Source: a virus (lineage: Duplodnaviria > Caudoviricetes). From it: DNA of 64,000 nt. Below, in pieces: positions 3,578-62,209 of the stretch; the first letter of the stretch is position 1; every line of letters begins with the position of its first letter. The stretch spans positions 153,076 to 217,075 of the IMG/VR virus record IMGVR_UViG_3300032038_009890. The stretch is one strand, 5' to 3'. The position numbers were made by a program, and so were the translations under genes. The notes under the pieces are model-generated. The model was not told the origin of the DNA and ran no database searches. It worked only from the letters and a program-made list of their open reading frames with translations.

Positions 3578-4711
3578 ATGCAAATACTAACTGATCAATC
3601 CCAATACAACAACATCCATGGCAAAATCGGCCTAATAGATGCAGACCTACTTGATGGTGGCACCAGATTCCCTAACCTCGTCATAGAAAAGCTTTCAGGT
3701 TACTATAAAGAGCGTGGCCTAGATATCTCGCTTATCTGTTCCTATAAAGACCTCGATCCTTCTACTTACGACACTATCTTTCTATCTAGGGTCTTCGACT
3801 TCACAGAAGTACCTGAAGAAATACTTGCCGCGCCTAATGTCTATGTAGGTGGCACAGGATTCTTCTTTGACAAAGCTACTCCTCTCCCCTACTCTATAGA
3901 GCATCATATGCCTGACTATCATATCTACGACCGGTACATCGAATTAAACAAAACCAGATTCAAGGCTAAGAACTATTTTGATAATTATAACTATAGCGTA
4001 GGCTTTGCTACACGGGGCTGTTTTAGGCAGTGCCCATTCTGTGTGAATCAGAACTATAAGAAGGTAGAGTTCAATGCGCATATATCAGAATTCTACGATC
4101 CTTCTACTAAAGGTATAGTCCTGCTCGATGATAATATCTTAGGATATAGTAAATGGCATGAAATACTTACTGAATTGCACGAAATAAATAGACCTTTTAT
4201 GTTTAAGCAGGGCATGGATATACGCTTAATGACTGTAGATAAGGCAAAGATGCTTAATGACTCTAAGTACATCGACAGATTTATCTTTGCATTTGATAAT
4301 ATCAATGATAGGCCGCAAGTAGAGCATGGTCTTGCTATTTGGCGCGAATACTGTAAGCGCAGGTCTATGTTATATGTCTTAACAGGATTCTATAGTCAGG
4401 ATGCAGAGGACATTAAAGCTATATTTGAGCGTTGTGATGTTTTAGAAAAATATGATTGTTTACCCTATCTTATGAGGCATAAAAACTATCTGAATAGTCC
4501 TTATAAGGGATTATATATTTCTCTGGCCAGATGGATGAATCAGCACAATATGTTTAAGAATAAGACCTTCAGAGAATTCGTTAATGTTAGTCAGAGTCAA
4601 ATTAAGCGCGAAGGATTTATTGGCGCTGATTTAAGAGCATTGCGCCAGTTTGAAAATGATTGCCCAGAGATTGCTAAAAAGTGGTTCGACAAAAGATATA
4701 ATATTAGCTAA
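3578..4711 (+). CDS. radical SAM protein
   Basis: TRGCFRQCPFC (CxxxCxxC), LLDDNILG, QGMDIR. Confidence 0.85.
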   Translation: MQILTDQSQYNNIHGKIGLIDADLLDGGTRFPNLVIEKLSGYYKERGLDISLICSYKDLDPSTYDTIFLSRVFDFTEVPEEILAAPNVYVGGTGFFFDKATPLPYSIEHHMPDYHIYDRYIELNKTRFKAKNYFDNYNYSVGFATRGCFRQCPFCVNQNYKKVEFNAHISEFYDPSTKGIVLLDDNILGYSKWHEILTELHEINRPFMFKQGMDIRLMTVDKAKMLNDSKYIDRFIFAFDNINDRPQVEHGLAIWREYCKRRSMLYVLTGFYSQDAEDIKAIFERCDVLEKYDCLPYLMRHKNYLNSPYKGLYISLARWMNQHNMFKNKTFREFVNVSQSQIKREGFIGADLRALRQFENDCPEIAKKWFDKRYNIS

Positions 4712-4723
4712 AGGAGAATACTA

Positions 4724-5155
4724 ATGAATAATAACGATCTATTACAACTACTCCAGGATAATGGCTATACCAAACAAGACTTACTTAACTACGCAAATGC
4801 TATTGCAGATGCCGATCGCAAAGCCGCGATTATTGCAGAAGATAATGAGAAGTTATCTTATTTAGGGAAATGCTATAAAGTGGATCATACTTACTATAAA
4901 GTAATATCACGCCTTGGTTATTATCATAGAGAGGTAAGTTGTTTATTCTTTGGCGAAGACCCTGTTTTAACTTTGCATCTAGATTATAATGGAATTCGCG
5001 GTGAGGTTATACTGGACTCAGATAGTGTTATAGATGTAGCCTCCGTGAGCTTAGACAAATTACTACGAGGCGTTGAGATCACACTAGAAGAATTTAATAA
5101 GGCGTATGATAACTATGTAAATATTCTAAAGGAGATAGTATGGATAGAGGATTAA
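4724..5155 (+). CDS. hypothetical protein, paralog of 9661..10095
   Basis: Shared LGKC(Y/F)..YYKV and E(I/V)TLEEF motifs. Confidence 0.7.
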   Translation: MNNNDLLQLLQDNGYTKQDLLNYANAIADADRKAAIIAEDNEKLSYLGKCYKVDHTYYKVISRLGYYHREVSCLFFGEDPVLTLHLDYNGIRGEVILDSDSVIDVASVSLDKLLRGVEITLEEFNKAYDNYVNILKEIVWIED

Positions 5156-16000: not shown

Positions 16001-17059
16001 TACCCGCCCAAAAATATGAATAATAAATATATGTATAATGGGAAATATTATACATCTAAAGAATTAGAAGCGTTATGCCCAAATGGATTACAATATAATA
16101 CGATTGTATCTAGAATATAATCAGGATGGTCTGTTGAAGATGCCGTAAATCTTCCGGCGAATGAAAAACCTGACAAATTAAGTAAAAATTAATAATATTT
16201 ATCAAACTAACCCAGAGCCAAGATTGTGAAGTTGAAATGTAACAATAAGGCGTAGAGACTAGAAAGGTGACTAGACAAAGAATAATCCTTTCCACGAGTG
16301 CCGAACATCTAACCAGATAATGCTGAAGATGAAGATATAGTCCGATACTCCAGAGTATTTGGAGACGCCCAAGATAAAGAGCTTGGGATATAACATATGC
16401 AATTAGCAATAGATGGATGTAAAAAGATTTTTGATATAGATGTAAATGATGAAATAAAACGTATACGCGCGCAGGAATGTATGAATAGAGAGAAAGATTT
16501 TCCTAAGTTTATGGCGTATACGCATAAGATTCCTGTTACCAAAAATGGGAAAGATCGTCCTTATGAAGATATTCAAAAAGACAAAAAAAGAGTCCAAGAA
16601 AGAATAGATGAAACAATCGAATGCCCAATGAATTGGATGCATGATTGTTTAGATAAAATTCAAGGTGCTGAGCATGAAAGTAATATTGATACACTAGAAT
16701 TTTTAATTGATAAGCCAACAAAAAGAGTTGATCCTCGTCAAATGAATAAAGTAAGAGATATTATTGAAAAATATGATAGTCTTGTTAGGCATTATATTGC
16801 TACAAATAATAACGAAGATGACGGGATTGACGAAATTGATCAACTTCAAAAAGCGACGGATGAAGTAGTTGAAGCTGTTTCAAAGATAAAAATGTCCCAA
16901 GCAACTATGTTTAGATTAATTCAAACATGTTTAGGATATGAGGGACGTGTTAATAAGAATAAGTCATATAAGAATGCTACAAAATATGCAATTAGAACTA
17001 TGAATATTCTATATAAATCAAACCCGGAACGATTTTTATCATGTTTTAAAAAGGGATAA
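13030..17059 (+). CDS. yonO: YonO-type single-subunit DNA-dependent RNA polymerase; join(13030..15129,16400..17059)
   Basis: LFDGQALI, LRNHFFKAC, RSPQN, catalytic NGEDFDSD; spliced junction reads ILAVLA|QLAIDGCKK; SPbeta-like synteny with HU, YonK- and YonJ-like genes. Confidence 0.85.
15130..16399 (+). ncRNA. group I intron in the RNA polymerase gene (1270 nt)
   Basis: 5' splice site after U (TGGCT|TAA), P1 UGGCU/GGUCA with U-G pair, P7 GAGACTA/TAGTCC, terminal G (CATATG|CAA); removal restores the frame. Confidence 0.9.
15226..16193 (+). pseudogene. intron-encoded GIY-YIG homing endonuclease, apparently degenerate
   Basis: FTLY..KVYIGIT..RF motif; +1 frameshift in the A-run near 15690 and a premature TAA at 16118-16120, after which the RI..GWS.E.A repeat continues. 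Confidence 0.75.
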
Positions 17060-24486: not shown

Positions 24487-24771
24487 CCTAATCTTTTTCC
24501 CTACTCCACAATTAGTAGAGGGAGATTTTACGTACCTCAGCCACACATGAGGTGCTTATATGCCCTGACCCAAGGTGCTAAACAGGGTCATAATTGCATG
24601 AAAAAGCCTCTAGAACCACGTCGAGCGCTTTAGACGATAATTAACTTGTCTATGCGTCTGGCGTGTGTCTGAGGGCTTTCTGAGCGAATCCGCGGCGGCT
24701 CGTAAATAGGGTTTCGACTACCCTAGCGGATTTTGGCTAGTTTAGGGCCGTGAAAAGCTAGACGAAATTAG

Positions 24772-25056
24772 AGGGGATTAGTTTAAAGGGAAAACAGCTG
24801 ACTCTCATTAAAAATAGGACGTTTTGATTGAAAAGTCAAAAATGAATAGTGTCAAATTCGGCGGAGGTCTTAATAAGAAAACGCCGAGCTAAGCTTAATT
24901 GAAAGTGTAGAGACTTAATGGCACGACCTAAGTTTAAAATATGGTGAAGACAAAGTCCAGACTACAATGCAATATGCAGTTACGGCGACGTAATGTAGTA
25001 AGAAATCAGTAAGTGCGTTGAAGCCGCAATTGAGCGTTCGAATCGCTCATCCCCCA
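24772..25056 (+). tRNA. amber suppressor tRNA(CUA), intron-split; join(24772..24805,25003..25056)
   Basis: Spliced: AGGGGAT-TA-GTTT..AAAC-A-GCTGA-CTCT|AAA-TCAGT-21-nt variable arm-GAGCG-TTCGAAT-CGCTC-ATCCCCC-A. Confidence 0.85.
24806..25002 (+). ncRNA. group I intron inside the anticodon (197 nt)
   Basis: P3 GTGTCA/TGGCAC, P4 TCGGCG/CGCCGA, P7 GAGACTT/AAGTCC, P9 ACTACA/TGTAGT, preceded by U and ending in G. Confidence 0.9.
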
Positions 25057-25450
25057 GCAAAACACAGTTAAATATGAGGATTTGCAAACCTTATATGGGA
25101 AGGTGTCTTCTATCCCCTCCCCTTTCTGTGTTTGATTTAGATGATCAAAAACATTATGTTTTCCAAGGGATTGGCCTCGTTAGTCAGTTCTTGATTTTAG
25201 TAAAGGAGCAAAGTGACTTGAAGAATTATTTTCACGCGACAATTAATTTTATCACAGAATATAATCGCATACAATACAAAATGGCTTATGGTTAGCAAGA
25301 CACGTCTGACTAGGAAGACGAGTTTATCCAAGATTTTAGCGAGAATCTAGCCGAGGCGCTGATGCATGACGTGGGTGAAAGCGAATTTGCGCAGAGACAG
25401 CTTTACGACTCGGCCAAGATTATTTGTGAAGAGTATAAGGAAAAAGAGAT

Positions 25451-25852
25451 ATGAAACGTATACGAAATATTGAGCTTGTTTTAGAGAATTGTGAGTTTGT
25501 AATTATAGATACCGAATATATTAATGAAATAAAAATTATGGATATTCAGAAAAATATTATTGGCTATTCTGGCGCAAGCCATCCTAGTGTATATGAATAT
25601 TGTGATAATGTACATATGGTAATTTACGGCAGAATTAATGATACGGAGCAAGAAGGTTTGTTCTCTGATGATTATTCTATTGCGCAGAGATTGAAAGAAG
25701 GCCGAGATATTACTCAGATAGAGGTGCTTTATGATGATTATCCGCCCGAGATTTTGTGGGTGAATTTTAAGGGTGATTATTTTAATCAGTATCAATCTGG
25801 GTGTGTGGATGAAGAAGGTAATATTTGGATTGATATAAAGCGCCCTGTATAA
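25451..25852 (+). CDS. hypothetical protein
   Basis: 133-aa ORF with AAGGA SD. Confidence 0.65.
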   Translation: MKRIRNIELVLENCEFVIIDTEYINEIKIMDIQKNIIGYSGASHPSVYEYCDNVHMVIYGRINDTEQEGLFSDDYSIAQRLKEGRDITQIEVLYDDYPPEILWVNFKGDYFNQYQSGCVDEEGNIWIDIKRPV

Positions 25853-25863
25853 CTAGGGTGTTT

Positions 25864-25950
25864 GCAGTTGTGGCAGAGTTTGGTTGAATGCACCTCCCTG
25901 CTAAGGAGGCAATCCTTCGGGATTCACTAGTTCAAATCTAGTCAACTGCG
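25864..25950 (+). tRNA. tRNA-Ser(GCT)
   Basis: GCAGTTG/CAACTGC, CCTCC-CTGCTAA-GGAGG, long variable arm AATCC-TTCG-GGATT, G73. Confidence 0.92.
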
Positions 25951-25954
25951 GTTC

Positions 25955-26026
25955 GCCGATGTAATTCAATTAGTAGAATATTGGATTTGTAACCCAAAAA
26001 CTACGGAGCATAACCGTACTTCGGCT
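25955..26026 (+). tRNA. tRNA-Thr(TGT), atypical T-loop
   Basis: GCCGATG/CTTCGGC, TTGGA-TTTGTAA-CCCAA, T-loop AGCATAA. Confidence 0.75.
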
Positions 26027-26137
26027 TTATGAGTAGGAAATACCGAGGATTGGCCTCCTTGGTATGAGTGTGTATCCTCGTTCAGCACACTCCCCTACTC
26101 TATTACAGATTGAACGAGAGAAATACGAGGTGATAAA

Positions 26138-27385
26138 ATGGGTTATACACATGGTATATCGAAAGATGCAAAATTTAGACAATGTACGTGTTGTGGAGAA
26201 ACATATCCAAACACAAATGAATATTTCTATAAAAACAATAGAAATGGTTTAGGTTCTATTTGTAAACAGTGTACAAGTAAGAGAAATAGAGAGATAAATA
26301 GTGAATTAAAGAAGAGATTTGTTAATAATAATATAGAATACGATGGAGATAAAACGTGCATTTGTTGTGGTAGATCATTACCAAATTCATACAAGTATTT
26401 TCCAATAGATAAAACAACTAAAACTGGACTTAGGAATAAATGTCGTGAATGTAGTACAAATTATGGCCATTTTTTAGATGATGATGCTTTACGATATGAA
26501 ATATGGACTAAAGAAGAAGATGAGATACTTATAAAATACTATAAGGATTATCCCGGAAAAGAATTGAAGGAAAAGTTTCTTCCCAATAGAACAGTAAGAG
26601 CGATAGAATGTAGGGGTGGTTATTTGGGCCTTCAAGGGAAAAGTGAAGAAGGCAAGGAAAAAGCGAATAAGTATCGTTCGGAAATAATTAGTGATATTAT
26701 GACTGGAAGAACATTTAGCGATGAGTGGAAGAAAAAGATTTCAGATTCAACTAAAAAATATTACGAAATACACGATGGTTATTGGAAAGGAAAACATAGG
26801 TCTCCTGAGCAAGTAAAGCAAATGAGCGAAAGAATGAAAGGGAAATGGGCGGGAGATAAAAATCCAAGACATATTCATCCCTTAAATGGCGCCGAAAACG
26901 GACGGTGGAAGGGTGGTATAAATCAGACATATATGGAGCTTCGTTCTGAAACAAAAGACTGGCAAAAAGAATCTATGGAATTCTGTAATTATGAATGTAT
27001 AATAACTGGATTAAAATTTGATGATATTCATCATACTTTTCCTTTCAGAGATATTGTTGATGAGATATTTTCAAACATCTGTTTAGATATAAGAGAACAA
27101 GTGTTAGATTATACAGAAGATGAATTTTAGGTTTTACAAGACGAAGTACATTATATGCATATATTGTATGGATTTGGAGCATGTTTAAAAAAAGAAATAC
27201 ATAAATTATTTCATGATAATTACGGATATACTAGTATTACGCAATATGATTTTCTAGATTTTATTTATAGAATTGATTCTGGCGAATTTGATAAATGGTT
27301 TATAGATAATAATATCCCAATAAATATAAATTATAATTATGTTGATTATCTAGAAAAGATTGCATTTGTTTTAAATAATGAATAA
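26138..27385 (+). CDS. HNH-like endonuclease with Zn-ribbons and NUMOD-type repeats, TAG=Gln
   Basis: CxxC pairs, NGRWKGG, IHH..F..HKLFH; two track ORFs in frame across the TAG at 27128. Confidence 0.75.
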
Positions 27386-37314: not shown

Positions 37315-39817
37315 TGGCAATCACCAAAGAAATGTATTCTAAGTTATTAGGAACAAATACTATGGGTAGAGCTAGAAAAGCGGATTCTGATATGGTAATG
37401 GCGGAAACTTGGTGGAATGACATTTAGGCTCAGACGGCCTATTGTTATGATTATTCGCATGATATTGGGGATGAAAGGTTCTTTTTGCGGGACCTGCACC
37501 CAGATAGAGATGCGAATAAAACACCCATTGCCGTAAAGTTTATTCGCCATGAATTGCAGTCTCTTAACAAGGACCCTGTGAGCTTTTGGCTCTAGTTTAT
37601 GCCGGGGCAAGAATGTAATTTAGATTACTATTCGTCTACGCTTGGCAGATATAGGGCTACGTGGCCTGTAGGGTTGTATTTTGATATACGGGCCGAGGAT
37701 GGAAAGTATAACAAGTGGTTATGTGTGAATACTGCGAATTATTGGGGAAATCAGTTTCCTACTTATCAGATTCTACCTTGTGATTATGTTTTTTAGTGGA
37801 TTCATGATGGATATAAGTATGAGTGTCCGGGAGTACTTAGCTCACAAAATTCGTAGGTTATGCGCTTTACATTGGAAACAGTGTATCGAAAGTTCCTTAA
37901 TTTCTGGGAGGACTTTATTGAGGATAAAGTTTATCAGAAGCGAAGTCGGATTTATTCGAAACGTTCAACGAGCAAAGTAGGGCAAGTGCCTGAAAATAGG
38001 AACCACCTAAGTCGTAAAGATATGGTGTTGATGTGCTCTAAACTTATAGGTGACTATAAGAAAATCATCTTATTACTTAGGTTATAAGACAGGACAGGGA
38101 GTAGCTACCTTTTGTAATGGCCTCTAACGTTACAATTACTGTCTTTAACATATTATTTTATAGAGGAGGAATAATATATGTATAAAGTTGGCAATAGATT
38201 CGAATTTACAAATGAAGAAAAAGAACAAATTGTAAAAATGTTTGTAGAACAAGGATTGTCCATGAGAAAAATACAATCGATGTATAATATAGCTAGATCC
38301 AATCCAATCGCAAGAGTGTTAGATGAATATGGTATTGATCATAGTAGAGGAAACTTATCTGCATTTAAACCAAATTTTCCGGATGGAATATATAATAAAA
38401 AAGAAGAAAAAAGAGTTATTGATGAAATCAGCAAAATACCATCAAAAGATCAAAAATATAATATAAATGATAAGTTTTTTGATGATTTGAGAAATCCGAC
38501 ATCAATATATATTATCGGTTTATTATATGCTGATGGATGTAATCATAGTGAAACGTCTATTACTCTATCACTTGAAGAATGTGATCATGAAATTTTGGAA
38601 ACAATAAATCAATTATTGAAAAATGAAAAACCAGTTACATTTCAAGATAAAAGTAATAAACATGATTTCGGATATGATTATGAAAACCAGTATCAACTGA
38701 CGATAAATAATAAAAGGATTGCTAAAGTATTAAGTATACTTGGAGTAGTACCAAGAAAAAGTTTGATATTGGAATTTCCGAAATGGCTTCATCCAAGTAT
38801 GTACTCGCATTTTATAAGGGGAGTATATGACGGAGATGGATCTGTATATAGATATTATAAAGATGGAGTTCCTCGTAACACTACATTGACAATTACATCT
38901 ACATAGCAGTTTTGTAAAGCAATTATAGATATATCGGCAAAATATATTGGAATAAAATCAAATATTTATGATGCATCATGTCATAATGGAATAACAAAAG
39001 TGTTTTCTATTACTGGGTATGATGTATGTAAAAAATTTCTTGATTGGTTATATTCTGACAGTGATATATATTTAAAAAGAAAATTTGAAAGATATTGCGA
39101 ATATTATCCAGAAGTATTAAAAGATGAATCAGTTGTAGTCTAACGAACTAAACTGTAATAATATTAGATAACTCGGGCCTTTGGGTGAATTATAAGATTC
39201 AAACCATTGAGGATTAGCAGAAAGCAATTTTACCAATGAACGAGATCACAGAAACTATAACATATAACCTTCGTCTTATAATCGATACAGACCTTTAGGA
39301 CTCGTCTGTGGAATACTATAGGGTGTGGCTTATATCAAAAGTTAATAGAATCTCACCATTCGGTATTTGCAATGCTACTATGACCCAGGATAAGATCAAC
39401 GAACACTCAGATTATATTGAAAAAGATGAAACAGGAAAAGTAATAGGGAAATGGGCGGATTTTCGTCGATCAGCTGTAGAACCTGTAGATAATACGCCAG
39501 ATTCTTCCCTCATAATCACAACTACTTCCAAAATCACTGCTTCTGGCACGACCAATTAGGTCAAGTCAGGTAGTTCAAAAACATTTACAGTCACCTTCTA
39601 TGAGGATGATCAGCCAGTAGAACACGAATATGGCGAATGGTCCTTTACCATAGATGGATTTGACGCAACTGGTATTCTATCTCCTTCTTATCCTGCAGAG
39701 AATAAGGTGAAGATTAAAGCACCGAAGGATGATAGATATATTGGTAAAATAATAACTGTTATTCATACGTCAGATGAAATCGTGTCAAGTCTAGACGTAG
39801 AAATCATCGCTTTGTAA
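37314..39817 (+). CDS. neck/head-closure-like protein; join(37314..37854,39168..39817), TAG=Gln
   Basis: Spliced junction reads GVLSSQNS-Y(T|AT)-NSGLWVNYK; total 397 codons in frame. Confidence 0.75.
37855..39167 (+). ncRNA. group I intron (1313 nt) carrying a LAGLIDADG ORF
   Basis: P1 CGU|A..UGCG, P3 GTTCCT/AGGAAC, P7 ACGAGCA/TGCTCT, terminal G. Confidence 0.88.
38178..39143 (+). CDS. intron-encoded LAGLIDADG homing endonuclease (one TAG=Gln)
   Basis: YIIGLLYADG and HFIRGVYDGDG motifs; frame continues past the TAG at 38904 to FLDWLY..YLKRKF. Confidence 0.85.
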
Positions 39818-41253: not shown

Positions 41254-42415
41254 ATGGGATTTAAGCTTGGTAATCATTATATCGATTAAATCTAGTCGCC
41301 TTATATAGTAATATATATTGAATAAGTTGGTGAACACAGATATCTGTGGTGTCGATTTAGCGTATAGTAATCGCAGGAAATGGCGAATAATAAATCGGCT
41401 AACGGGGAAAACCTAAGTCATTTAGTACCATATGATATGGTAATCCCGTGGTAAGCCTTGCTGTGCAAGGAAACTCTAACGACCATTCCACTGGTGATGA
41501 AATTTCACAATAGAAGTAGGGCCAAGTGAAACTCTTGGTAGGTGAAAACCCTTTAAATCGAAGTGCCAACTACCCTCTTCCTCCGAGGGTAATGATATGG
41601 TCTATTCCGAACGAAATATTGCGAAAGCAACGGTATATAAGGAGATTCTCTATGGTACTGGTCAGGATTCCAAGGATCGTCTGATCTTTTCTCTTGATCA
41701 GCTGACTTCTGCTTCTATTTCGGTTGATGCCGAAGAGCAGACTGTAACGGATAAGAAGGGTAATGAGGTTCGTACCACCTATCGTAATAAGACTGGTGAG
41801 TTTACCTCTACTTCTGCTCTTCTGCATCCCGCTGTTATGAACGTCCAGTCTGGTAGCGACATTACATATGCTACTAGTAATGCTCCGATTGTTATGCCTA
41901 AGATTCATGTTGTTGAGGCCGGGAAGCGTATTGCTATTCCTGACATCAAGACTGGTACTCTTCGCGTAATTGGTATCTTTGGTAATGGTGCAAATGATAT
42001 TGGTATGGATGCCGCCGCTTCTGCCGCTCTTGTTGAGGGTACTGGCTCCAATGCTGTCTTTACCGCTCCCGCTCCTGGGGATGGCCTTCCCACTTCTTAC
42101 CTGATTCGTTATGAGAGGGATGCTGTTTCTGGTGCTATGCTTACTAACTCTACTAAGGATTTCCCGAGTCAGCTGAAGCTTACTCTGTTCTGCTCCTATG
42201 GTGATCCTTGTGAGAACGATCTGAAGCCCTGCTACGTCGTCATTCCAAGGTTTGCTCCGAGCCCGACGATGGAAATCTCTCTGGATGCCGAGAGTCAGGA
42301 AATCGACTTCAGTGGTAAGATGAATATTGATTATTGTGCGGGTTCACAGGCACTTTATTACATCTATTATCCCGAAGAGGATCTTGTTGTCTCTGGTGTT
42401 GTTGTCGAGCCGTAA
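41254..42415 (+). CDS. major tail (tube) protein; join(41254..41286,41642..42415)
   Basis: AAGGAGG SD, exon 1 MGFKLGNHYID | exon 2 EILYGTGQD; high-expression-like codon bias; followed by a terminator. Confidence 0.75.
41287..41641 (+). ncRNA. group I intron without ORF (355 nt)
   Basis: P1 CGAU|..GUCG, P3 GTTGGT/GCCAAC, P4 ACGGG/CCCGT, P7 ACGACCA/TGGTCT, terminal G. Confidence 0.88.
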
Positions 42416-43629: not shown

Positions 43630-43893
43630 ATGGAACAATTTATGAAGCGAAGTCCTATTACAGGACGTAAGTATGATTTTTTTAGTAAGGATATAGTCAG
43701 ATTAATTAATATTTACTAGTCATTTTATTACATTAACGAAATGGGTATTGTGCCGTTGGATATAGTCCTGAGTGATGATCGCAAAAGGCCCGGCAAGAAG
43801 ATTCTGCTCTTTCTTTTCTCAAAGGCAGAGACCCAAGAGGCATATAAGGAATGGTTGGCACATAAGGAGGAACACGGAAATGATTTACTTTGA
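43630..43893 (+). CDS. small hypothetical protein, TAG=Gln
   Basis: RLINIY(Q)SFYY..PLDI..LFSKAETQEAYKEW. Confidence 0.6.
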
Positions 43894-45019
43894 TAATGGT
43901 GCTACCACTCCCCTACTCTCAGAAGTAAAGGATAAAATGATAAATATACTTGAAAATTTTGGGAATCCGTCATCTCTTTACGGAATAGGTCGCGAGAGCA
44001 AACAGCTTGTAGAAGATTCTATGCAGACAATTGCTGACTTTATGAAATGTCCCGTGGAGAATCTTTTTATTACATCTGGAGCAAGTGAAAGCAATTCTTG
44101 GGTGATCTATTCTGCGTTTCGTAAGGCGAGGGAGAAGCATAAGGGAAACCATATTGTTTGTAGTATGATAGAACATCATAGTATAAAGAATGCTCTGGAA
44201 GATTTGCATAAGAGTCAAGGAGTGGATATTACATATGTTGGCACAGATAAATATGGGATTGTTAGCCCTAAAGATGTCGAGGCCGCGATGAGAAATGACA
44301 CTTTTCTGGTAATCGTCATGACAGCAAATAATGAAACCGGGACTATTCAGCCAATTGGGCGAATCGCAGAGGTTGCGCATAAGTATGGCGCGCTTATATT
44401 TACGGATGCTACCCAGTATTTTGGAAAAGGAAATATTGAGTTTCTAGTTAATGACGTGAATTATTTGTCAGCAAGTGCGCATAAACTCCATGGACCTAAA
44501 GGCATTGGATTACTCTATGTGAGTGACCCTATCCTACTCTACCCTCTTGTTCATGGTACTCAACAAGGCGCAAAACGGGGCGGAACGGAGAATGTGCTTG
44601 AGATTGTTGGCTTTGCGGAAGCTGTGCGACAGGCTAGTTTGCATATGTATGAGTGGAATAATCATGTGCAAAAGTTAACTATGCATTTGCTTAATAGGAT
44701 TCTAGATGAGATTTCGGGAACTAAGCTTAATGGTCATCGACTCATGCGATTATGTGGGACTTTGAATATCTCTTTTGAGGGGATTCGTGGCGAAGAATTA
44801 CTTATGTTATTAGACCTTAACGGAGTTTGTGTGTCCACAGGTTCGGCGTGTAATTCTGCTTCCAATGAACCGTCTTACGTGCTTTTAGCTCTTGGATGTA
44901 CTCCAGAAGAAGCAAATTCATCTATAAGGTTTAGCCTGTCTCATTTTAACACAATGGAAGAAGTAGATTATGTTGTTGATAAGCTGAAAGAACTTATTTC
45001 ACAGCTTAGAGGTAAGTAA
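43880..45019 (+). CDS. iscS: cysteine desulfurase (IscS/NifS family)
   Basis: IYFDNGATT, NNETG, SAHKLHGPKG (PLP lysine), STGSAC (catalytic cysteine). Confidence 0.92.
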   Translation: MIYFDNGATTPLLSEVKDKMINILENFGNPSSLYGIGRESKQLVEDSMQTIADFMKCPVENLFITSGASESNSWVIYSAFRKAREKHKGNHIVCSMIEHHSIKNALEDLHKSQGVDITYVGTDKYGIVSPKDVEAAMRNDTFLVIVMTANNETGTIQPIGRIAEVAHKYGALIFTDATQYFGKGNIEFLVNDVNYLSASAHKLHGPKGIGLLYVSDPILLYPLVHGTQQGAKRGGTENVLEIVGFAEAVRQASLHMYEWNNHVQKLTMHLLNRILDEISGTKLNGHRLMRLCGTLNISFEGIRGEELLMLLDLNGVCVSTGSACNSASNEPSYVLLALGCTPEEANSSIRFSLSHFNTMEEVDYVVDKLKELISQLRGK

Positions 45020-58209: not shown

Positions 58210-59487
58210 ATGGCAAATACAAGAGATTCATTGGGTGAACAGAATACATTAGATGGATTAGTAAATCACTCTATTACTAGTTTTGAAGAGGACGGAGTTA
58301 CTACATTAACCACTAATGCTTTAGCACATCAAACACAATTAACATCTGTAAAATTTCCAAATTTGATAAGTACTGGAAATAATGCTTTTCAATATGATAC
58401 TGGATTACAGCATATTACAGAAGACCAGTTTCCAAATTTAAATACAATTGGTACGTCTGCATTTGCGAATTGTACAGGACTTGTGGACGCTAAGTTTCCT
58501 AGTGTCACAACTGTAAGTAATAATGCTTTCAATGGATGTACAAATTTGGAAACATTTGAAACTGGCGTGAATAAAGTAGCATTTACTACGCCATTCACAG
58601 GATGTTCTAAGTTGGAGAATTTGATAATTAATAGTACTCAAATGTCAACTTTAAATAGTGCAACAGGACTTTCTGGAACAGCTATTGCAAATTACAAAGG
58701 GGCTGTGTATGTACCAGACGAGCTTGTTGCAACATATAAAGCAAATGCGAATTGGAAGCCGTATTTTGTTTTTTCTAAAAATGATTATCCCGTATCGTCA
58801 TATCCTGACCCTGCGGATTTTGCAGGAACTGGGACAATAACCGACACATGGGCAGAGATTGTAGCGAATGAGAATTATGCTACAGACTATGCGATTGGCG
58901 CAACGAAGTCTGTATATCTGTCTGGATTTGGTATGTTTAATATGGAACTCGTTGCAAAGGATACGGATATTCGTGCTGACGGAGATGAGACTAAAAATAA
59001 TGGTAAGGCTCGAATGACTTGGATTATGAAAGAATTGTTTACTACGCATAATATGAATTCAACTTCTACGAATGCTAATGGATGGCCCGCAACTGCTATG
59101 AGAAGTTGGTTAAGGGGCACTATTTTACCGTTATTCCCAGAAGTTGTGCGAAACAATATAGTTGAAGTCACTAAGACATATTATAATTATACGACAAAAA
59201 CTACTCTTTCAACTCCAGATACAATTTGGATTCCTTCGTTAAGAGAAATATTTAATGGAAGTGGTGGATATACAGAAGAAGATTCTGGTGTAACCTATGT
59301 ATCCGCATCTAAGTTTAATAATGATACAAATCGAAAGAAATATCTGAATGGAAGCGCTTACTACTGGTGGTCTCGTTCAGCTAGTTCTGGCTACTCCAGC
59401 CGTTTCGTGTGCGTCCGTAGCAGCGGCGGCGCCTACTACAGCCGTGCCAACGACACCTCTGGGGTTGCGCCCGGCTTCTGCCTCTAA
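58210..59487 (+). CDS. DGR target protein: BspA-type LRR plus C-terminal C-type-lectin-fold domain (probable receptor-binding/adhesion protein)
   Basis: AF.GCT.L repeats; GWPATAMRSWL, IWIPSLREI, YWWSRS..GVAPGFCL; carries the VR. Confidence 0.88.
   Translation: MANTRDSLGEQNTLDGLVNHSITSFEEDGVTTLTTNALAHQTQLTSVKFPNLISTGNNAFQYDTGLQHITEDQFPNLNTIGTSAFANCTGLVDAKFPSVTTVSNNAFNGCTNLETFETGVNKVAFTTPFTGCSKLENLIINSTQMSTLNSATGLSGTAIANYKGAVYVPDELVATYKANANWKPYFVFSKNDYPVSSYPDPADFAGTGTITDTWAEIVANENYATDYAIGATKSVYLSGFGMFNMELVAKDTDIRADGDETKNNGKARMTWIMKELFTTHNMNSTSTNANGWPATAMRSWLRGTILPLFPEVVRNNIVEVTKTYYNYTTKTTLSTPDTIWIPSLREIFNGSGGYTEEDSGVTYVSASKFNNDTNRKKYLNGSAYYWWSRSASSGYSSRFVCVRSSGGAYYSRANDTSGVAPGFCL
59354..59478 (+). 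repeat. DGR variable repeat (VR), 125 nt
   Basis: Colinear with the spliced TR; 23 mismatches, all at TR adenines. Confidence 0.95.
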
Positions 59488-60633: not shown

Positions 60634-60961
60634 AGAGTCTCGGCAGTCATGTGACAAAGTAGGTGACGAAATCGGTATGACTTAGAAGGAGCGGATGACC
60701 TTCCGATTATGGTAAATAAGCAAGAGATGCTGTATGCTATGCATATCTAAGCTCTCGTTCTCTGATACATTTAGGCGGATGACGCTTCTTGCATGGATGT
60801 TGAAAACTGAAATATACGAAATTAACGATATTTTGGTAATCATTAAGAGAGTGGGTATCCTCTCCATTTTCATGGCTAAATGTTATGCGACTAGAAATGA
60901 TACCAAGACGCAAGTCAAATAAAAAGGATAATAATGTCGTACAGAGTGCATCGATATTCTA

Positions 60962-62209
60962 ATGAATAGTAAATAGAGACATGAAATTAGATTTTAGAGA
61001 AGAAAAGCAGAACGTGAAAAGAAAGTTAAGTAGCGTTCTGATGAATATTCTGAGTGGGAGAATGTTTTTGGTTTGGTCCCGCTCGTAAAAGCATATAAGG
61101 ATACAAGTAAGGCTTCACGGAAATATACGAAGACATAGATATGGATGTCAAGTTTGCTTGTAAATAGTAGAGAAATATAGTGTTAGTTAAGAGATGATAA
61201 ATGGAAGTCAAAAGGTTTTAATAAGTTTGATATAATGGAGCGAGGTAAGTTACGACATATTGCTTCTGTACATATATCTGAGAAAGGTATTTAGAATACA
61301 TTATCTAATAACTATTTGATTCCAATTCTTGGGCCGCATTTGATTTATGATAATGGCGCAAGTATGAAAAATAAAGGCACTGATTTTGCTCTAAATAGGT
61401 TTACTAAGCATTTACATGAACACTATAGAAAATATGGGCGAAATGGATGGATTTATTTCTTTGATTTCAGTAGCTATTTTATGAATATAGATATCGACAT
61501 TTTGCTGAATAATGCACAAAGATATATCCATGATGAGAGATTGTTTAATCTATACAAATAGTTAATCAGTAATTACACAGATGGTGGGTTGAATCTAGGA
61601 AGTCAAGTATCTCAAATTAGTGCTGTATTCTATCCTACTCCCTTAGACCATTTGATTAAAGATTAGCTTGGTGTAAAGGGTTATGGGAGATATATGGATG
61701 ATGGATATGTTATATGCGATGATTTGCAGAGGCTAAAGGAAATAGTTCGATTATTTGAAGGAAAATGTGCGGAATTAGGTATAGTGCTGAACAAAAAGAA
61801 ATGTCAGTATATTAAAATGAATAAGTAGTTTGTATTTCTAAAGACAAGATTCTTCATTACTGAAAATGGAAAAGTGGTAAGACGTATAAATAGGCCCGTT
61901 GCTAGAAAAGAAAGATAGCGTCTTAAATCATTTAAGAAGTTTTATAAACTTGGATTGATGAATAAGAGAGAAGTGTATTTAAATTTTCATTCTTGGTTAT
62001 TTTCGTTGAATCGTGGTAAAAATTTTCATTTAAGGAACAATATGATAAAGTATTATAATATATTGTTTGATGAATTTGAGAATTATGTTCCTACTTATGT
62101 CAAAAGTAGGAAGTAGAAGCAATTATTGTATCTTGCAAAAATTAATTAGACGCGTAGAAATTATATCTATATTAATTGTGATTCATCTTGTGATATAATT
62201 GCGGCATAA
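60962..62209 (+). CDS. DGR reverse transcriptase (~415 aa, about 13 in-frame TAG)
   Basis: ERGKLRHI, IYDNGAS..KG, FDFSSYF..I, GLNLGSQVSQ, YGRYMDDG, LNKKK, FVFLK. Confidence 0.92.

Follow-up and report, generated by a model that had tools for sequence, protein, structure and literature searches.

A phage amber-suppressor tRNA gene split by a group I intron of the tRNA-Leu lineage

Our analyses indicate that a group I intron without an ORF, belonging to the lineage found in tRNA-Leu genes, splits the amber-suppressor tRNA gene of a recoded phage, and that this intron is most probably a tolerated selfish element and no dedicated timer. The stretch of DNA analysed, hereafter the window, is the last 64 kb (64,000 nucleotides) of a 217,075-bp IMG/VR virus record, a phage genome that CheckV estimates to be 98% complete and flags as a provirus. 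In the mechanism that we propose, the precursor RNA would fold into a group I core, and the guide GGA would pair with the exon end UCU, with a U·G wobble at the splice site; exogenous guanosine would attack the 5′ splice site, and the freed exon would then attack after the terminal base of the intron, G25002. The ligated 88-nt tRNA, with the loop CUCUAAA and the anticodon CUA, would be charged, most likely ending as Gln-tRNA, and would decode in-frame TAG in the structural, packaging and reverse-transcriptase genes of the late module. Splicing is probably constitutive.

Anatomy, fold and splice sites of the split gene

Run in its intron mode over the whole genome, ARAGORN calls a tRNA(cta) gene on the plus strand at window positions 24772–25056 (genome 177847–178131), with the intron given as (35,197), that is, 197 nt inserted after anticodon position 35. 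The 5′ exon (24772–24805) supplies the 5′ strand of the acceptor stem beginning with A1, the D arm, the 5′ strand of the anticodon stem and the loop positions 32–35, CUCU. The ORF-less intron (24806–25002, plus strand), supported by Rfam RF00028, alignment and covariation, ends in the omega G, G25002, and the 3′ exon (25003–25056) continues with the loop positions 36–38, AAA, the 3′ strand of the anticodon stem, a 21-nt variable arm, the T arm, the 3′ strand of the acceptor stem with C72, and the discriminator base A73. On the joined exons, ARAGORN reports an 88-nt cloverleaf with a long variable arm and the anticodon CUA in the loop CUCUAAA; the 7-nt anticodon loop, U33, the GG of the D loop and the standard T loop are those of a canonical elongator tRNA, the sole departure being A1·C72.

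The first-pass annotation of this DNA had proposed that the CUA anticodon is formed only by group I splicing between positions 35 and 36, a 5′ half ending in CTCT and a 3′ half beginning with AAA being separated by a 197-nt core. The ARAGORN call and the Rfam match both agree with this, and the coordinates proved exact. It had also expected standard tRNA scans to miss the gene, and neither default ARAGORN nor the Rfam tRNA model calls anything at 24772–25056. The gene is hidden from such finders because the intron splits the anticodon; in the bacterial mode of tRNAscan, genes split by group I introns are invisible. The intron is recognised by the Rfam model Intron_gpI (RF00028), which matches 24790–24979 with 53.5 bits, above the gathering threshold of 50 (E-value 2e-12 in a local and 7e-14 in a genome search), although in a run over the whole window at the gathering threshold the search filters missed it.

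The neighbours of the split gene are genes for tRNA-Asp, tRNA-Pro, tRNA-Ser and tRNA-Thr. A tRNA-Thr gene with the anticodon UGU, at window 25955–26026, was missed by ARAGORN and found with Rfam (48.7 bits); its anticodon stem has an A·C mismatch. An identical 11-mer lies at 25168–25178 and 26047–26057, about 110 nt 3′ of the split tRNA and 21 nt 3′ of the tRNA-Thr, and has only these two exact copies in the genome. On the other side, a non-coding leader of 285 nt (24487–24771) fills the space between an Ant-like gene and the split tRNA. The leader is unusually structured (z −3.8, with 0 of 200 shuffles equally stable), matches no Rfam family and has no counterpart upstream of the homologous split genes L012 and L054, which have terminator-like hairpins there instead. 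In a promoter/terminator scan, promoter-like sites around the split gene were at chance level (12 seen, 12.4 expected). An exact search of IMG/VR with the T arm and acceptor of the window's gene returned no match, and neither did blastn with the whole split gene against GenBank phages.

To describe the fold, we use an alignment (A2) of 22 genes that all bear an intron, 8 for tRNA(CUA) and 14 for phage tRNA-Leu(UAA); all helices lie on the plus strand. P1 (24803–24819) pairs the exon's UCU (24803–24805) with the guide GGA (24817–24819), alike in 8 of 8 tRNA(CUA) genes, and the splice-site wobble U24805·G24817 and the terminal G25002 are just as constant among these homologues. The P2 hairpin (24822–24841) pairs 24822–24827 with 24836–24841 and corresponds to RNAalifold columns 63–88, the helix showing compensatory changes in all 10 pairs. 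P3 (24849–24924), formed by 24849–24853 and 24920–24924, encloses P4, P5 and P6; tested as a pseudoknot, it is 87% paired and compensatory in 5 of 5 pairs. P4 (24857–24863 with 24882–24888) is 94% paired. The guanosine-binding helix P7 (24912–24957), in which 24912–24916 pair with 24953–24957 around P8, is 100% paired in the 22 sequences, with an invariant G-C pair. Finally, the 5-bp P9 (24962–24998; 24962–24966 with 24994–24998) is also 100% paired and encloses two small hairpins, of which the second has a GNRA-type loop; these inner hairpins too show compensatory changes, for example against L012.

Applied to A2, RNAalifold closes the acceptor stem across the intron and recovers the D and T stems, P2, P4, P5, P7, P8 and P9 and the two hairpins within P9, with 47 of 55 pairs compensatory. 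When the P3 pseudoknot is added, 92.7% of the cells are in standard pairs, against 35–42% (about 38%) with slid partners, and 52 of the 60 pairs, acceptor stem and P3 pseudoknot included, are compensatory, with changes on both sides; in 500 shuffles the observed values were never reached. Covariation across the homologues extends to the acceptor and T stems. Of the 60 consensus pairs, 58 are present in the gene of the window, the exceptions being A1·C72 and one alignment gap. Judged by these substitution patterns, the fold of the split gene is under selection.

As for the splice sites, the exon–guide pairing in the window's gene is 3 bp long, with C·C at the fourth position, and reaches 4 bp in L012, L054, L161 and L170; P10 is weak in the window's intron. 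Sister alleles offer a further view of the junction: one tRNA(CUA) body, with the same anticodon stem and variable arm, bears the intron in L054 and L192 and lacks it at five loci (L001/L188, L187, L189, L190 and L191), and the intron-less loci read CUCUAAA, the junction predicted for the ligated exons of L054 and L192. This allele pair belongs to a sister tRNA body, not to the window's own, and L001, which has the intron-less form, is the closest portal relative of the window phage. The splice junction is supported by the structure and by these sister alleles, and we infer that the RNA is spliced and that its exons are ligated as CUCU-AAA. That the sites lie elsewhere and produce a different anticodon we find barely credible. 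They were placed by prediction, and ARAGORN mis-set the boundaries of L054 and called another anticodon there; however, only U24805 and G25002 give a 7-nt loop together with the P1 U·G wobble and a terminal G, guide and exon covary, and the intron-less sisters carry the very junction predicted.

TAG recoding and the identity of the suppressor

In-frame TAG is abundant in the plus-strand genes at genome 176.8–217 kb and 1–55 kb, where a single ORF of 6281 aa contains 35 of them, and absent from the minus-strand module at 55–137 kb and the plus-strand module at 153–176 kb. The split gene stands at the head of the TAG-rich block, on the boundary between the TAG-free and the TAG-rich plus-strand genes. 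As a terminator, TAG is used by 2 of 80 early ORFs, versus 50 of the 73 ORFs called with code 11 in the late module. From window position 23.7 kb onward, 30 plus-strand ORFs measure 150 aa or more, and 26 of them hold in-frame TAG; the TAG-bearing late ORFs include those for a reverse transcriptase (13 TAGs), the portal and a capsid-region protein.

The TAG codons of the window lie mostly opposite CAG or CAA in four close relatives (75–77% portal identity), and the TAG codons of these relatives lie mostly opposite Gln in the window phage. Site by site, Gln has the majority at 8 of 20 TAG positions among close relatives and at 11 of 31 among distant ones, whose portal identity is 38%; Lys, Glu and Asp follow. 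Leu is in the majority at one distant site only and Ser at none. Since TAG sites align mostly with Gln in relatives, the reading of TAG as Gln in the late genes is well supported by the comparison of sequences, and the earlier proposal that this recoding concerns nearly all late proteins holds up. Leu, Ser or Tyr, which the long variable arm of the tRNA would suggest, are ruled out as the meaning of TAG by the residues at the TAG sites.

Several features of the genome touch on the recoding. At window 60645–62209, an RT-2 RNA motif (Rfam 66.7 bits) immediately precedes the RVT_1 reverse transcriptase gene, whose 13 in-frame TAGs fall within 415 codons, a retroelement under the recoded regime. 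Inside the late block, the genes at window 43772–45019 and 58210–59487, a class V aminotransferase (cysteine desulfurase-like) and a BspA-type LRR/DUF6273 protein, are free of TAG and may be recent acquisitions in the standard code. Two tyrosine recombinase (Phage_integrase) genes are found on the minus strand in the TAG-free modules (genome 55868–56380 and 132850–133356), which fits a temperate lifestyle with the lysogeny genes in the standard code. A portal-based search of representative bacterial genomes found no related prophage or host, and the nearest cultured portals, at 25–28% identity, are those of Bacillus, Lactococcus and Staphylococcus siphophages.

No second tRNA(CUA) was found in the 98%-complete genome with ARAGORN, intron mode included; an uninterrupted suppressor, which would have weakened the earlier proposal, is thus not seen there. 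As the split gene is the only tRNA(CUA) recognised, a phage-encoded reader of TAG would arise only by splicing. The same genome yielded no gene for a Glu/Gln-tRNA synthetase and none for a release factor, and charging with Gln would probably fall to host enzymes. The body of the tRNA is of interest in this respect. Among bacterial Gln tRNAs, a long variable arm combined with A1·C72 and A73 is unusual, and with its long arm and its A1·C72 mismatch the window's tRNA(CUA), which also has A73, is not a typical tRNA-Gln. A weak first pair, on the other hand, is common to all: 1:72 is weak or unpaired in 13 of the 13 tRNA(CUA) genes examined (A·C in 3, A-U in 4, U-A in 4, G·U in 1 and U·U in 1), and all but one have G2. 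GlnRS and the amidotransferase GatCAB both use a weak 1:72 pair as a feature by which to recognise tRNA-Gln, and G1-to-A mutants of su+3, a long-arm amber suppressor of E. coli, are mischarged with Gln. The weak pair is consistent with the Gln reading, and a class II body that apparently ends up carrying Gln raises the question of how tRNA identity is set. Long-arm tRNA(CUA) genes are seen in phages with TAG aligned to Gln at the window and at L012, L105, L054, L192, L001 and L187–L191.

The mismatch atop the acceptor stem could also be taken as a sign that the split gene is decaying or non-functional and that TAG is decoded by an undetected odd tRNA, a host tRNA or near-cognate readthrough. 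Candidates for such decoders exist, as three tRNA genes of the phage have inserts of 50–67 nt and one has no anticodon arm, and a close relative, G002, likewise 98% complete, has no detectable tRNA(CUA). We nevertheless regard decay as quite improbable. A1·C72 recurs in L012 and L105 and is therefore a conserved trait and not a mark of decay; nearly all consensus pairs are formed, no damage is seen in the core helices, the terminal G or the P7 G-C pair, and both the T loop and the GG of the D loop have the canonical form. A CUA loop is not available from any of the odd tRNAs.

The insert-bearing tRNAs belong to the early cluster (genome 123–129 kb) and were considered as a source of a second suppressor, a candidacy rejected as no CUA loop could be derived from them. 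In L013 (genome 123000–129000), the tRNA-type genes lie on the minus strand at 4214–4332, 1071–1209, 2266–2379 and 4845–4906: three are Rfam-positive tRNAs with the 50–67-nt inserts in or beside the anticodon loop, and the fourth, which is tRNA-like, has no anticodon arm. A conserved motif with a hairpin is common to two of the inserts. All the inserts are too short for group I introns, and Rfam matches none of them; they may be related to the introns called 'enigmatic' in the tRNAs of Lak phages (PMC6784885). In G002, whose late genes contain in-frame TAG, a tRNA-like gene (L201:1501-1593) has a 26-nt insert in the D loop and an anticodon loop of 4 nt.

Lineage of the intron and the timing of the code switch

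When IMG/VR was scanned for the intron's conserved 3′ motif, at least 120 stretches were retrieved. Among the matches listed, at least 106 resolvable loci are in tRNA-Leu(UAA) genes, split at site 34/35 with the loop CUU|AAAA. At least 8 distinct tRNA(CUA) genes in IMG/VR are split at 35/36 with the loop CUCU|AAA, namely the window's and L012, L054, L192, L105, L176, L161 and L170; seven of these eight contain the 3′ motif, and L192 came from a variable-arm search. The guide tracks the exon: UCU is matched by GGA in 8 of 8 tRNA(CUA) genes and CUU by GAG in 36 of the 38 tRNA-Leu genes among the matches listed. The bodies of the eight split tRNA(CUA) genes differ, three having a short variable region with U1-A72 and five a long variable arm.

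The alignable similarity indicates homology between this intron and those in phage tRNA-Leu(UAA) genes. In the intron tree, the CUA introns are interspersed among the Leu introns: the window's intron pairs with that of the tRNA-Leu(UAA) gene L118 (SH-aLRT 96; 71% identity over 192 columns), and those of L161 and L170 pair with the Leu intron of L126 (SH-aLRT 100). The well-supported branches force at least three switches between CUA and Leu hosts, but the AU test does not reject a single clade of CUA introns (p 0.13), and repeated transfer is therefore not established. The insertion site, between U35 and A36 of CUA as against U34 and A35 of UAA, departs from that of a strict tRNA-Leu(UAA) intron, and the intron is therefore a relative of the latter with a new host gene and a new site. 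It would appear either to have moved from tRNA-Leu(UAA) to tRNA(CUA) or to have been inherited along with the genes, its guide having been retargeted. The site shift of one nucleotide and the matching change of the guide make a clean natural example of such retargeting.

Having no ORF, the intron has no homing endonuclease of its own. Group I introns are frequent in these phages: each of the relatives has between 3 and 9 group I matches, 3 further weak ones are present in this genome, and the tRNA-Leu(UAA) and tRNA-Arg(UCU) genes can be split too. The weak matches (30–38 bits, below threshold) are at window 41332–41623 and 16087–16364 and at genome 10897–11254; all three sit between ORFs and are probably introns in protein genes, and a Pfam scan of the adjoining ORFs gave nothing informative. 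The late block also holds a LAGLIDADG-type gene (38178–39143) and an HNH/EndoVII-like gene (26138–27385). We read the intron as a selfish element because the same lineage occurs in tRNA-Leu(UAA), because it is found in both short- and long-arm tRNA(CUA) bodies, because the CUA introns are interspersed among the Leu introns in the tree and because the relatives are rich in introns.

The first-pass annotation had gone further and inferred that splicing may time the code switch, a view that our results do not support, as no sign of regulated splicing is seen in the sequence. In one form of the idea, the intron would have been co-opted such that maturation of the suppressor is rate-limited by splicing or conditional on it, for example on GTP/Mg2+ status or on a phage factor. 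Slow or conditional removal of the intron would then set the supply of mature tRNA(CUA) and with it the translation of TAG-containing genes; the suppressor would be silent in the prophage or early state, and splicing would set the onset of TAG-dependent late translation. Several features of the genome would suit such a role: decoding of TAG by a phage tRNA depends on splicing as long as the split gene is the only recognisable tRNA(CUA), the gene marks the border of the two plus-strand codes, and a silent suppressor would be useful to a phage with a provirus flag and two recombinases in its standard-code modules. The structured leader lies just upstream, and precedents exist in a c-di-GMP-controlled allosteric group I intron (PMC3984707) and, in the available text of PMC10879173, in ribozymes proposed to act on phage suppressor tRNAs. 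Selection for the intron could also explain why it is kept at one site in at least eight suppressor genes.

We nonetheless consider both co-option and a splicing-gated or splicing-tuned switch unlikely. The sensor domain of an allosteric group I ribozyme is missing, as the intron is a bare, minimal core of 197 nt with no extra domain. Between window positions 24500 and 26200, Rfam models searched with E-values up to 10 match the tRNAs, the intron and otherwise only at chance level, with no aptamer or other known family beside the intron. Against a timer, too, one tRNA(CUA) body, though a sister to the window's, does without the intron at five loci, and the lineage resides in ordinary tRNA-Leu(UAA) genes. 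Group I introns of tRNA genes, such as that of Anabaena, splice within minutes or faster in vitro, which again speaks against a rate-limiting step. The tolerated selfish element thus remains our preferred reading. Whichever applies, the translation of nearly all late proteins here would depend on a ribozyme reaction, and the timing idea is directly testable.

Comparison with known systems

The group I intron of tRNA-Leu(UAA) in cyanobacteria and plastids belongs to subgroup IC3. The intron described here resembles it in being a small, ORF-less core in an anticodon loop, in the junction U|A, in the P2–P9 architecture and in sequence, and differs from it in the host gene, a tRNA(CUA), in the site, 35/36 instead of 34/35, and in the guide, GGA instead of GAG.

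A switch by a group I intron has one established example, the c-di-GMP-dependent intron of Clostridioides difficile (reviewed in PMC3984707); unlike that intron, which adjoins its aptamer, the one studied here has no detectable aptamer. Theta ribozymes, which are HDV-like, adjoin phage suppressor tRNAs and have been proposed to play a role in the code switch, according to the available text of PMC10879173. In both cases a ribozyme is physically coupled to the maturation of tRNA(CUA), but the theta ribozymes, as that text describes them, are self-cleaving and flank the tRNA, whereas here a predicted self-splicing intron sits inside the anticodon. No HDV-like Rfam match was found at 24500–26200, the Rfam models used being ones that may omit the theta subgroup.

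Introns in phage tRNAs have been noted before. Devoto et al. (PMC6784885), in the text available, describe 'enigmatic' introns in the tRNAs of Lak phages (Tyr, Thr), and the accessible part of a 2026 survey of jumbo phages (PMC13037316) mentions tRNA introns in generic terms only. Common to these cases and ours are, as far as these texts go, alternatively coded phages and alleles with and without the insert; in contrast to ours, the introns of Lak and jumbo phages (in Tyr, Thr and other tRNAs) are not described there as group I or as splitting a suppressor. In the portions of the literature covered by our search, no phage suppressor tRNA is described as carrying a group I intron, an absence that is no proof of novelty.

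In its coding, the phage resembles the code-15 phages as presented in the available texts of Borges et al. (10.1101/2021.08.26.457843) and Peters et al. (PMC9523058): the early and replication modules use the standard code and the structural and late genes are rich in TAG, TAG stands for Gln, and the suppressor heads the recoded block. Two sequence features of a code-15 suppressor, a CUA anticodon and in-frame TAG codons in conserved genes that align with Gln, are present. Unlike the suppressors of those phages, however, this one is split by a ribozyme and invisible to default finders, and its long-arm body is not of the usual Gln type. The split gene is useful for the annotation of recoded phages. 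In the available parts of the surveys, suppressor tRNAs are recorded in only about 40% of TAG-recoded phage genomes, and the sole mention of group I concerns an endonuclease gene; suppressors interrupted by such introns can explain part of this gap, for which an intron-aware scan is an easy fix.
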